From Nostoc punctiforme PCC 73102 (GTDB lineage: Bacteria; Cyanobacteriota; Cyanobacteriia; Cyanobacteriales; Nostocaceae), in contig NC_010628.1 in NCBI RefSeq assembly GCF_000020025.1, forward strand, positions 2,340,001 through 2,372,000: DNA of 32,000 bases, in the 5' to 3' direction. The translations under genes and the position numbers were made by a program. Below the pieces are notes generated by a model. That model was not told where the DNA came from and ran no database searches. It was given only the letters and a program-made list of their open reading frames with translations. Each line of letters opens with the position of its first letter. Positions within the stretch are counted from its first letter, which is position 1. Positions 9,700 through 12,144 of the stretch are shown piece by piece.

Positions 9700-9747
9700 T
9701 ATACAATACACAAATAAATTAGTTAAATTTGCTTACTATAAATGTGC

Positions 9748-9776
9748 GCGTAGGCGTAGCCCGCCGTAGGCATCGC
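9748..9776 (+). repeat. 29-nt dispersed repeat gcgtaggcgtagcccgccgtaggcatcgc
   Basis: A near-identical copy lies at 19649-19677 in the same orientation. A half copy in reverse orientation lies at 6987-6999. Confidence 0.75.
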
Positions 9777-9824
9777 GTTTCTTTAGAGACTGTATCTGTA
9801 AGTCTGCCTTTTGGCATTGGTTCG

Positions 9825-10256
9825 ATGTCGTGGAAAGTTGACACCACACAAAAGAAGGCGGCTTGGTCGCTGTATGTGGAATTGGTGACGCGCATTGCTG
9901 TGCAACTATTAGAAGTTGACCAGGGTTTGGTACGAGAAGCGATGAACTCTCTTTATAGTTTATTTGGCACTACCCGCGAAGTTCTCAAAGCTGCCGGGCC
10001 TGATGTGGGTGCTTCTCGTGATTCAGTGGGGGGAATTGCGATCGCTGTGTTGAATAATGGGTTAAGACCGTTTTTGGCTAAATGGCATCCGTTGTTGCAA
10101 GCGTGGGAAGTTAGGCGACCTGTGGGGGTGAGTCCCAAGGAACATGAGCAGAGTTGGTCTGAAGAAGCGACGGTGCGAAGTGAATTAGACAAGTTGCGTG
10201 TGGATTTAGAACAGTATGCCAAGGCGTTGGCGACTATCGCAGGCGTGGGAGAGTGA
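9825..10256 (+). CDS. hypothetical helical protein (143 aa), first gene of the TIR-GUN4 pair
   Basis: The ATG at 9825 (MSWKVDTTQKK...) is chosen because the ORF-track N-terminal extension (from 9729) is encoded by the dispersed repeat. The stop TGA-TAA directly abuts the next ATG. Confidence 0.6.
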   Translation: MSWKVDTTQKKAAWSLYVELVTRIAVQLLEVDQGLVREAMNSLYSLFGTTREVLKAAGPDVGASRDSVGGIAIAVLNNGLRPFLAKWHPLLQAWEVRRPVGVSPKEHEQSWSEEATVRSELDKLRVDLEQYAKALATIAGVGE

Positions 10257-10259
10257 TAA

Positions 10260-11219
10260 ATGGAACAGTTTGATGTGTTTCTGGCTTATAATAGTTTGGA
10301 TAAGCCGGAAGTTCAAGACATCGCAGCAGCATTAAGAAGGCGTAATTTAGAACCCTGGATAGACGATGAGCAAATTCGACCAGGACGACCATTTCAAGAT
10401 GAAATCCAACAGGCAATTCCTCTAGTAAAATCTGCTGCTATCTTCTTTGGTGTGCTTGGTTTAGGACGCTGGCAAAGTTGGGAATTGAGATCCTTGATTA
10501 ATCAGTGTGTAAACAGAGGGATTCCGGTAATTCCTGTTTTGCTTCCTGGTGTTAATCAACTGCCTGACAACTTAATTTTTTTGAATGAATTTAGATGGGT
10601 CTGTTTCTCTCAAAGCATTGATGATGGGCGTGCTTTGTCTTTATTGGAATGGGGTATTACTGGGATAAAGCCAGAGTCACAACCTATTATTCATCCTCCA
10701 GTATTTGAAAGACCATCAAAACCACCAAAAACAATCCCAGAAGCACCCACTCAGACAGATGACCTATCCTCAGAAAAAGGCATACACTATACCAGACTAC
10801 GCGACCTACTAGTAGCAAAAAACTGGAAAGAAGCCGATAAAGAAACTTATCTGGTGATGATTCAGGTTGTAGGCAAAAAAGATGGCGACTACTTTTCTAG
10901 AGACGAACTTTTAAATTTTCCTTGCATTGACTTACTCACAATTGACCGCTTGTGGGTCAAATACAGTAATGGACACTTTGGCTTTAGCGTCCAGAAAGAA
11001 ATATACTTGAGCGTAGGCGGTAAAGCTGACGGCAATTATTATGAAGAAATTTGGGAAAAATTTGGTGATCGTGTGGGATGGAAATTTCAAAATATGTGGA
11101 TATTTGCTGTAATTTATAGTACAAATAAAGCTCCGAAAGGACACCTGCCTTTTGGGGAATTTAAGTTGGTGAAAGGAATTGTATATCTCTTCTTTCGCAT
11201 CGAGACTTGTAAACTGTAA
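10260..11219 (+). CDS. TIR domain - GUN4 domain fusion protein
   Basis: N-terminal 'FDVFLAYNSLDK...' with 'RWQSWELRS' (candidate catalytic Glu75) and 'IPVIPVLL' fits bacterial TIR_2. C-terminal 'WKEADKETYLVM...NFPCIDLLTIDRLWVKYSNGHFGFSVQKEIY' is a clear GUN4 core signature. A Pro-rich linker spans aa ~140-175. Confidence 0.85.
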   Translation: MEQFDVFLAYNSLDKPEVQDIAAALRRRNLEPWIDDEQIRPGRPFQDEIQQAIPLVKSAAIFFGVLGLGRWQSWELRSLINQCVNRGIPVIPVLLPGVNQLPDNLIFLNEFRWVCFSQSIDDGRALSLLEWGITGIKPESQPIIHPPVFERPSKPPKTIPEAPTQTDDLSSEKGIHYTRLRDLLVAKNWKEADKETYLVMIQVVGKKDGDYFSRDELLNFPCIDLLTIDRLWVKYSNGHFGFSVQKEIYLSVGGKADGNYYEEIWEKFGDRVGWKFQNMWIFAVIYSTNKAPKGHLPFGEFKLVKGIVYLFFRIETCKL

Positions 11220-11259
11220 TATTAATTATTTCCCAGAATTTACTCAATATTAAAATTGA

Positions 11260-12144
11260 ATGACGCGTTTCATACATGATCAATTCGCCAAAGACTATCT
11301 AGAAGAATTATTAAAAGATTACGGTGAAGTCAAAGCATCGGAAAAAGTCTCAGGAGAGATTAAAGAAATAGATGTTTTATTCACTCCTGCCAAACAACAA
11401 AGCTCTAATATACAAATACTGGGTTTGCTAGGAAGATTTGCTGAAAATCCTGCAATAATAGAACCCTTTCGGAATCCAGCTTCTACCGATGAAATCTGCG
11501 ACTGTATTTTAAAATTATTAGAAATCAAGGCTCTCTTACGACGAGAAGCTAAAGCTAATAAAACCAAACTTCAGGACTCAGAAATTCCCAAATTGTGGGT
11601 TCTTACACCTACCATATCTGAAACCAGATTGTCTAGCTTTGTAACTATGCAAAAAGACGGTTGGTTATCAGGAGTACATTTTCTCCCAGATGCCTTACGG
11701 ACAGCAATTGTAGCAATACACCAACTACCGCAAACACCGGAAACATTATGGTTGAGGCTTTTAGGTAGGGGAAGTGTGCAGTCACAAGCGATTATCGAGT
11801 TGCAAGCGTTACCATTAGATCATCCATACCAGAAAGCAACCCTAGAATTAGTTTATAACTTACGCGAAAACTTGAGAGTAAATCAAGAATTAGAAGCAGA
11901 TGATAGGGAGTTAATTATGCGACTAGAACCACTTTATCAAAGAGACAGAGAACAAGCTGTACAGTCAGGAGAACAACGTCTAGTTTTACGCTTACTCAAT
12001 CGCCGTATTGGTGAGATTGATAAGTCATTAATTGAGCGAATTCAAGGCTTATCGATTGAACAATTAGAGAATTTAGGAGAAGCATTGCTAGATTTTTCTA
12101 GTGTTGCTGATTTAGAAACTTGGTTAAACCAACAATCAATCTAA
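11260..12144 (+). CDS. Rpn/YhgA-like (PD-(D/E)XK) putative nuclease with C-terminal DUF4351
   Basis: N-terminal 'FIHDQFAKDYLEELL...EIKEIDVLFTP'. C-terminal 'GEQRLVLRLLNRRIGEIDKSLIERIQGLSIEQLENLGEALLDFSSVADLETWL' matches the DUF4351 consensus as I recall it. Confidence 0.7.
   Translation: MTRFIHDQFAKDYLEELLKDYGEVKASEKVSGEIKEIDVLFTPAKQQSSNIQILGLLGRFAENPAIIEPFRNPASTDEICDCILKLLEIKALLRREAKANKTKLQDSEIPKLWVLTPTISETRLSSFVTMQKDGWLSGVHFLPDALRTAIVAIHQLPQTPETLWLRLLGRGSVQSQAIIELQALPLDHPYQKATLELVYNLRENLRVNQELEADDRELIMRLEPLYQRDREQAVQSGEQRLVLRLLNRRIGEIDKSLIERIQGLSIEQLENLGEALLDFSSVADLETWLNQQSI

Follow-up and report, generated by a model that had tools for sequence, protein, structure and literature searches.

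The TIR–GUN4-like gene and its upstream partner

We analyzed a 32,000-nucleotide (nt) stretch of DNA from Nostoc punctiforme PCC 73102 (contig NC_010628.1, positions 2,340,001 to 2,372,000), hereafter referred to as the window, concentrating on two adjacent genes that code for a small protein and for a fusion of a TIR domain with a GUN4-like domain. Feature coordinates are window positions throughout, and all features described lie on the forward (+) strand. The gene of the TIR–GUN4-like protein (319 amino acids, aa) occupies positions 10260..11219 and was assigned from Pfam matches to TIR_2 and GUN4, an AlphaFold 2 (AF2) model and Foldseek searches. It is preceded by the gene of a small constant partner (9744..10256, ~170 aa). 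Direct reading of the sequence at 10254..10262 revealed the junction TGA-TAA-ATG with a 3-nt gap between the genes, as described in an earlier note on this DNA that had been made from the sequence alone. The same gap recurs across many related loci. No terminator-like site was found between the two genes, and the promoter and terminator scan was otherwise uninformative. The new element here is the conserved small partner one gene upstream; the architecture of the TIR–GUN4-like protein and the idea of a tetrapyrrole sensor are already known.

The upstream reading frame had previously been described as a helical orphan of 143 aa. Its start was misplaced: relatives are 163–170 aa long, and the 20–30 residues that precede ATG 9825 (VSVSLPFGIGS) are invariant in them, so ATG 9825 is internal and the start is probably GTG 9744 or, alternatively, TTG 9729. 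Nor is the protein an orphan, since it belongs to a large family, with 1,266 relatives in 90% clusters and 1,306 clusters at 50% identity. The helices were recovered in the AF2 model (4–5 of them; predicted local distance difference test score, pLDDT, 92.8), preceded by a β-hairpin at residues 15–32 that the description had missed. The ratio of nonsynonymous to synonymous substitution rates (dN/dS) for the small gene among syntenic orthologues is 0.12. None of 50 family members matched any Pfam, NCBIfam, PADLOC or PHROG model; DUF6650 (ThsG) and the other families of these four libraries were therefore rejected as candidates. Foldseek comparison of the model with PDB and BFVD revealed no similar structure. 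Arg50, Arg78 and Trp114 are invariant in the family, and Glu46, Arg64, Glu65, Asn104, Arg108, His115, Glu122, Glu135 and Trp138 are near-invariant; together, these residues may form a charged ligand pocket. A HEPN RNase was considered, as R108-x6-H115 is present, and set aside as unsupported: an invariant Pro follows the Arg, the motif context is atypical, the best structure match had an E-value of 1.6 and a template modeling (TM) score of 0.25–0.30, and no HEPN profile matched.

The TIR domain (residues 1–140, 10260..10679) was identified by its Pfam TIR_2 match (E-value 1e-15; PF13676, residues 6–119, 58.7 bits at a cut-off of 28) and modeled with pLDDT ~90. It aligns with BtTir, AbTir and SARM1, whose TIR domains were also matched by Foldseek with TM scores of 0.6–0.77; the MyD88 TIR was found as well. 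The Glu75 codon lies at 10482..10484, within the motif W71-Q-S-W-E75 (WxxxE). Glu75 is invariant in 35/35 aligned family members and corresponds to the Glu of WTEYE in BtTir and of WTNYE in AbTir, the latter of which we take to be the catalytic E208. The W-x-x-x-E motif is also kept in the divergent TIR types that substitute for this one in other strains. The proposal that Glu75 is a candidate catalytic residue is thus credible, and the domain looks catalytically competent, a predicted NADase.

A Pro-rich disordered linker (residues 142–163, 10683..10748; pLDDT below 50), gapped and variable in the family alignment, leads to the GUN4-like core (residues 171–297, 10770..11150), which extends up to the sequence GHLP. 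The Pfam GUN4 match has an E-value of 1.3e-37 (PF05419, residues 171–301, 129.5 bits at a cut-off of 29.2), and GUN4 sequences of the PDB match this part at an E-value of ~1e-15. Against solved GUN4 structures, Foldseek gave TM scores of 0.73–0.79 (core-only chains), a root-mean-square deviation of 2.1–3.7 Å and 27–34% identity. The AF2 model of the whole protein, built on 35 relatives, has a predicted TM score of 0.50, the two domains being independent; the GUN4 core is confident at residues 170–275, residues ~276–302 are poorly defined, and a final helix follows at 303–316. Pfam, AF2 and Foldseek thus agree with the proposed TIR and GUN4 fusion joined by a Pro-rich linker, and every motif that had been quoted for this protein is present.

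The position of the GUN4 ligand motif presents a different picture. The alignment with Synechocystis Gun4 (1Y6I) stops at GHLP. The LxNxLR motif that follows GHLP in true GUN4 (Asn211/Arg214, Synechocystis numbering) is absent: the window reads GHLP-FGEFKLVKG, and the family alignment is hypervariable there. This tail (11151..11219), which stands where true GUN4 has its LxNxLR lid, differs in length and sequence across the family, and confidence in the model is low at residues 282–302; DNA homology to other strains is lost over it. It closes with a conserved end, FxRIETCKL in the window and (L/F)(F/A)SR(I/L)xxC in the family. In addition, Synechocystis Arg113 is replaced by Tyr. GFSVQ, GHLP and most hydrophobic “palm” positions (e.g. 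Phe160 and Val135, the latter as Leu; Synechocystis numbering) are retained. In GUN4, Arg214 is “absolutely essential” for porphyrin binding (PMC1084334), and Asn211 is essential for bilin binding and retained by no member of a GUN4 paralogue clade (PMC10156173). Compared with bona fide GUN4 (Synechocystis Sll0558, PDB 1Y6I/4XKB), a Mg-chelatase cofactor, the window domain therefore shares the core fold, GFSVQ, GHLP and several palm residues, but lacks the Asn211/Arg214 motif, carries the Arg113 to Tyr change and a hypervariable lid, and has TIR in place of the N-terminal helical domain. What had been called a clear porphyrin-binding core keeps the fold, but not LxNxLR, in a region that is hypervariable and swapped between strains. 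Judged by its sequence, the GUN4 part appears to be of the paralogue type, with the fold kept and the porphyrin/bilin motif lost. When a “GUN4 domain” is annotated in a cyanobacterial multidomain protein, porphyrin binding should not be assumed.

These features bear on the model of the earlier note, in which a tetrapyrrole (protoporphyrin IX, Mg-protoporphyrin or bilin) bound to GUN4 gates the TIR NADase, so that the protein would report on photosynthesis or on the state of tetrapyrroles, which cyanophage might perturb. The retained GUN4 fold and palm positions are in line with such gating, and so is the distribution of GUN4-like fusions, which were found only in cyanobacteria in our searches, including all 41 of the 41 matching plasmid records (tblastn, 72,556 plasmids). 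A tblastn search of 50,697 phage genomes with the GUN4-like domain gave no match. The idea also has a history, and the novelty earlier given to it was overstated: in Kaur et al. 2020 (PMC7159879), TIR–GUN4 fusions are already reported and tetrapyrrole binding “likely allosterically regulates” such proteins, and a preprint (10.1101/2022.07.19.500537) puts forward the same regulation for NACHT–GUN4 proteins. The absence of LxNxLR, with Asn211 and Arg214, weighs against tetrapyrrole gating, and so does the hypervariable, strain-swapped nature of the corresponding region; the hypervariable lid argues for variable targets rather than for one tetrapyrrole. A further point against comes from PADLOC model PDLC04062 (PD-T4-6, 450 positions), whose positions 298–447, the C-terminal third, are matched by window positions 10737–11216 with an E-value of 2e-41, the match being to the model and untraced to the actual Escherichia coli protein; PD-T4-6 is described as E. 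coli-derived (PMC11514479). Membership of PD-T4-6 itself was ruled out, since the N-terminal Ser/Thr kinase part is missing from the window protein (Pfam), which has TIR in its place, and only model positions 298–447 match. Taken with the linkage data given below, tetrapyrrole gating appears to us quite unlikely.

A survey for the architecture revealed that it is common: the TIR–GUN4-like protein has 2,414 relatives, both Pfam domains being present on 119 of the 120 best, and the neighboring small gene is conserved. One relative carries EAD1. The GUN4-fused conflict proteins described earlier (kinase-, caspase-, trypsin-, TIR- and NACHT-GUN4; Kaur et al. 2020/2021, Kibby et al.) share the architecture, the lineage and the proposal of a sensory or regulatory role; a conserved small partner, the loss of LxNxLR and a cassette-like exchange of TIR do not figure in the portions of these papers that were consulted. 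The window pair also differs from the MoxR-vWA/iSTAND ternary systems of Kaur et al. in having no adjacent MoxR, vWA, VMAP or iSTAND and no EAD on the window protein.

Exchange of the TIR domain beside a constant partner

In ~28 Nostocaceae genomes the small/TIR pair is found at the same locus as in the window, between ferredoxin/DUF3326 genes and a DUF4351 gene. In an all-against-all comparison of 22 syntenic loci, the small protein had a mean identity of 94.2% and DUF3326 one of 89.8%; the GUN4 part reached 73.4% and TIR 44.5%, individual TIR values ranging from 20.7 to 96.3%. Small-protein and TIR distances are uncorrelated over these loci (Spearman −0.03, Mantel p 0.55), and so are the TIR and GUN4 distances within one polypeptide (Spearman −0.05).

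The replaced part was delimited by blastn against syntenic Nostoc loci. Identity is 87–91% up to ~10258–10380, is then lost and returns at ~10745–10770; homology continues over the GUN4 core to ~11100, is lost again and returns at 11232. The segment replaced between strains (10380..10745) thus comprises most of the TIR domain and the linker. No DNA homology was detectable in most strains over the TIR segment (~10380–10745) and the tail after GHLP (~11100–11232), while identity to other Nostoc loci is 80–92% for the small gene, the GUN4 core and the DUF4351 gene (window 10258–11232 versus L001–L045). Some Nostoc/Tolypothrix genomes carry two units of small and TIR–GUN4 genes in tandem, ~3 kb apart (L002 4007-7432+ and L019 4001-7368+). 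Identity between the two small genes' products is 97.5% and 94.6% in these arrays, as against 49.6% and 38.9% for their respective TIR partners. We conclude that cassette-like replacement affects the TIR domain and leaves the small protein constant. The Nostocaceae locus amounts to a natural experiment: TIR is replaced against a constant background of partner and GUN4 core, which can reveal what drives TIR diversification.

The small-then-large gene order, the 3-nt gap or overlaps and the 1:1 pairing, kept even in tandem arrays, could be those of a toxin–antitoxin-like pair. TIR would then be an NAD+-depleting effector and the small protein a brake, released when the GUN4-like domain senses a trigger; the brake might inhibit TIR, buffer its basal product or serve as an off-switch that degrades the product. 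Type II toxin–antitoxin pairs with NAD+-consuming toxins (e.g. Xre–RES) likewise have a small upstream gene tightly coupled to the gene of an enzyme that cleaves NAD+, and relatives fused to a helix-turn-helix (HTH) domain exist in the small family. However, a direct inhibitor should co-vary with its target, and the partners here do not: the correlation is −0.03, at 20–96% identity for TIR and ~94% for the small protein. Since the small protein does not co-vary with divergent TIRs, a cognate protein inhibitor is unlikely, and a link via a common small molecule or conserved TIR chemistry fits better.

The same data bear on another explanation, in which the small protein is a sensor or adaptor acting upstream of TIR, either a guarded bait or the sensor of a ligand, and activates whichever TIR is encoded beside it, TIR being the sole effector. 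The extreme conservation of the small protein would suit recognition of a conserved cue. Activation by contact would, in turn, require docking onto TIR domains that are mutually 20–45% identical, again without co-variation, and the TIR proteins already have variable C-terminal domains of their own in the sensor position.

Association of the small family with TIR genes

In cyanobacteria, 86 open reading frames (ORFs) of the small protein were collected from 80 genome loci, and for 72 of them the next gene encodes a TIR protein, often across a gap of 3 nt as in the window; the two-gene module suggested in the earlier note is thus conserved. The TIR partner carries GUN4 in 52 cases and another domain in 14, and in 6 more a divergent TIR is combined with GUN4; the remaining ORFs are at contig ends or degraded. 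Other C-terminal domains on the TIR partner are FGE-sulfatase, Septin/MMR_HSR1 GTPase, HD-CE+HATPase_c_3, GUN4x2, GUN4+DUF1349 and unknown ones, and the small gene also accompanies TIR fused to no further domain. The conserved partnership of the small protein is therefore with TIR and not with GUN4. The interchangeability of GUN4 with FGE-sulfatase, GTPase and HATPase behind the same TIR/small pair counts further against tetrapyrrole gating, which is weakened because LxNxLR is missing and because the small partner tracks TIR rather than GUN4.

The linkage extends beyond cyanobacteria. Among metagenome relatives (soil and other), a TIR ORF lies no more than 300 bp away in 45 of 80 loci, and in 30 of 45 when only loci with at least 500 bp on both sides are counted; both counts are lower bounds, as TIR was detected by local jackhmmer. 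The commonest metagenome form is a TIR of ~180 aa followed 7–16 nt on by the small gene. The small family adjoins TIR in Cyanobacteria, Actinomycetota, Pseudomonadota, Bacteroidota and Chloroflexota, and the linkage is also seen on three IMG/VR contigs. In Photobacterium the small gene precedes the gene of an 821-aa TIR protein, in Vibrio the order is TIR and then the small gene, and in Streptomyces cynarae it is NUDIX, small, 933-aa TIR. A NUDIX hydrolase gene adjoins the small-family gene in plasmids of two Streptomyces species (L105 3170-7356; L100 3842-5167), in one of which the NUDIX-small-TIR order comes with a 4-nt overlap.

Two arrangements on plasmids are of particular relevance to the function of the small protein. 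In Aureispira sp. CCB-E (L106 1-4444), one small-family gene comes after a row of four TIR genes. In Mesorhizobium (L103 3947-6538) and Sinorhizobium (L107 3857-6526), proteins of ~860–890 aa with the small domain at the N-terminus sit inside clusters of 3–4 short TIR genes; the Mesorhizobium protein is annotated as a patatin-like phospholipase (RefSeq). Both arrangements are at odds with a toxin–antitoxin-like pair, where one small gene would not be expected to serve four TIR genes and where an N-terminal position on a phospholipase fits a sensor and not an antitoxin. The four-TIR/one-small array and the absence of co-variation make a cognate antitoxin less likely. The patatin fusion also places the small domain with an effector enzyme inside TIR arrays, which counts against a sensor or adaptor that acts through TIR.

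Domain fusions of the family provide arguments on several sides. Fusions of the small domain and TIR exist in both orders. Of 55 multidomain representatives, 11 combine it with an Xre-type HTH; it is also found joined to EAD1, to EAD7 and to the C-terminus of a BTAD-STAND protein, and it forms tandem 2x–4x repeats in some proteins. The HTH fusions resemble antitoxin architectures. The sensor or adaptor explanation gains from the sensor position of the domain at the C-terminus of BTAD-STAND and behind HTH domains, and the EAD1/EAD7 fusions suggest recruitment into larger complexes; weighed against the docking requirement and the patatin fusion, it still strikes us as rather improbable.

A stand-alone small-family gene was found on a phage-like metagenomic contig (L088/L089 4001-4537), together with genes for DNA polymerase A, ThyX and thymidylate kinase and numerous small ORFs. 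TIR was not detected in its vicinity, and the gene could represent an anti-defense use of the small domain. At another locus (L087 248-4032), a small-family gene is divergent from genes of a 507-aa TIR_2 protein and a 514-aa protein with a weak Piwi match, a SPARTA-like (TIR-APAZ plus Piwi-like) short-Argonaute pair.

Both cases speak for a toxin–antitoxin-like pair: TIR is the effector in the TIR-APAZ plus Piwi-like arrangement, and an anti-defense protein might well be found on a phage-like contig. No relative of the small protein was found in 50,697 phage genomes, which stands against this explanation, and a phage anti-defense origin was rejected, as the only phage-like occurrence is that one metagenomic contig. 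On balance a toxin–antitoxin-like pair is, in our view, unlikely.

A Thoeris-like reading of the module

The reading that we favor, tentatively and at somewhat short of an even chance, is that the two genes form a TIR module on the plan of a Thoeris system, with the small protein receiving a signal made by TIR. The GUN4-like domain would most likely be the trigger-recognition or regulatory end of the TIR protein. Once activated, TIR would cleave NAD+ to yield an ADP-ribose-derived product; the small protein of 165–170 aa, the constant component, would be the receiver (sensor) of this product and would then act as the effector or relay the effector step. Observed are the domains, the invariant Glu, the strong linkage of the small family to TIR genes over a wide range of phyla, the fusions, the contrast between a constant partner and a swapped TIR, and the missing GUN4 ligand motif. 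We infer the enzymatic activity, a signal and its capture by the small protein, a role against phage and the way in which a protein that lacks an effector domain would act.

The small protein is read as a receiver because the layout matches that of Thoeris, with variable TIR proteins and a constant second component: in both, a TIR gene with a known or predicted catalytic Glu adjoins a second gene that stays constant while TIR genes vary. Several TIR genes can share one partner, as in Aureispira, and the partner domain is also present on a phospholipase-type protein. The strongest support comes from the four-TIR/one-small array, from the small domain that heads a phospholipase-type protein in TIR clusters, where it occupies the sensor position on a known effector type (patatin-like phospholipase), and from the Streptomyces NUDIX neighbor. 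The small protein is a generic rather than a cognate partner of TIR, which also speaks for a Thoeris-like module. Toxin–antitoxin pairs differ in just these respects, as the partners here do not co-vary, one small gene can serve several TIR genes and the phospholipase fusion exists.

There are recent precedents. According to a preprint on Thoeris types V–XI (10.64898/2025.12.03.692087), many operons of TIR plus an unknown effector have been validated: 29 effector types were predicted beside TIR genes and seven new ones validated. Several validated effectors are, as in the case considered here, domains of unknown function, and were modeled as oligomers with positively charged pockets between protomers. 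Among the rows listed in the accessible part of Table S1 of the Yirmiya et al. 2025 preprint, neither this TIR type nor its partner was matched; the family may yet be among the 29 predicted types. The module differs from characterized Thoeris systems in that the small partner matches no tested effector or sensor family (SLOG-SIR2, Macro-TM, caspase-like, DUF2270, DUF6650, SLATT and others), in the large C-terminal GUN4-like domain on the TIR protein and in the 1:1 pairing at a housekeeping locus in Nostocaceae. On the whole, the module points to a Thoeris-like immune signaling pair rather than to a porphyrin-gated enzyme.

Several observations weigh against a Thoeris-like module. No recognizable effector domain and, by eye, no long hydrophobic membrane-spanning stretch were found in the small protein; it resembles no solved or viral structure in Foldseek searches, and PADLOC has no model for it. 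The tightly coupled 1:1 pairing in Nostocaceae, with the small gene upstream, suits an antitoxin or complex subunit too. Swapped TIR types might make different products, all of which would have to be accepted by one receiver. TIR is missing from the neighborhood of some members of the family, namely HTH fusions, tandem repeats and the gene on the phage-like contig. Finally, the cyanobacterial loci are situated among housekeeping genes, apparently outside defense islands. Support from defense islands was sought in 143 neighboring ORFs of 42 non-syntenic cyanobacterial loci; these were mostly housekeeping genes and provided none.

This genomic context would be natural for a non-immune module, one that serves physiological NAD+/ADP-ribose signaling or kin recognition in filamentous cyanobacteria. 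The locus holds a fixed place between ferredoxin/DUF3326 and DUF4351/aconitase-like genes and is inherited vertically, other copies are also mostly next to housekeeping genes, and HTH-fused members occur in housekeeping contexts. In contrast to the cyanobacterial copies, some distant members of the family are near Cas6, a DUF4062 and ThsA_Macro pair or integrases, or on plasmids. Such locations on mobile elements and in TIR arrays, the cassette-like exchange of the TIR domain and of the GUN4 tail, which is typical of conflict systems, and the Thoeris precedent all argue against a non-immune module, which we consider very unlikely.

A broader version of the Thoeris-like reading, which is doubtful though worth stating, is that the small protein founds a new widespread class of receptors for TIR-made NAD-derived messengers and that, in cyanobacteria, the recognition domains are interchangeable and the TIR cassettes swappable. 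If this is true, the small protein would define an abundant and so far unnamed Thoeris-type pathway. Interchangeable recognition domains (GUN4-like with its hypervariable lid, FGE-sulfatase/lectin-like, GTPase) would detect infection, and swappable TIR cassettes would evade phage counter-measures in filamentous cyanobacteria. The GUN4-like domain might conceivably sense tetrapyrrole or bilin pools perturbed by phage. TIR signaling is common to bacterial, plant and animal immunity, and the identification of each further receiver of TIR products has brought to light either new chemistry or another means of stopping a cell. A family of ~1,300 clusters that has no profile in four libraries and is linked to TIR in at least five phyla is a testable candidate for a new receiver fold.

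Neighboring genes and further occurrences

The next ORF after the TIR–GUN4-like gene starts at 11260, after the 40-nt gap that had been given earlier, and extends to 12144 (11260..12144). It had been taken for an Rpn-like nuclease, which was not confirmed: Pfam detects only a C-terminal DUF4351 (residues 231–289). Synteny identifies this gene as a conserved boundary: it is 85–94% identical in at least 10 syntenic loci, its distance from the small/TIR pair varies, and membership in the module is not indicated; it is the conserved far edge of the variable locus. The other flanking ORFs of the window are, by eye, ferredoxin-like and aconitase-like. Rfam and tRNA scans of the window gave no matches.

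Some further occurrences of the small family were recorded. Near the Aureispira array, IS4 transposase and Cas6 genes are present. At one locus (L098 1474-5335) a 345-aa fusion of TIR and the small domain adjoins a DUF4062 protein and a ThsA_Macro protein, with HTH genes, a PIN gene and an integrase close by. At another (L096 1832-5203), a 400-aa protein with a tandem-duplicated small domain is encoded downstream of a radical SAM gene and the gene of a 303-aa protein, with an nSTAND1-WD40 protein and an IS21 element in the vicinity. In Aphanizomenon flos-aquae FACHB-1287, three contigs carry one copy of the small gene each; TIR-GUN4 comes after one copy, TIR-FGE-sulfatase after another, and no TIR ORF was detected downstream of the third.

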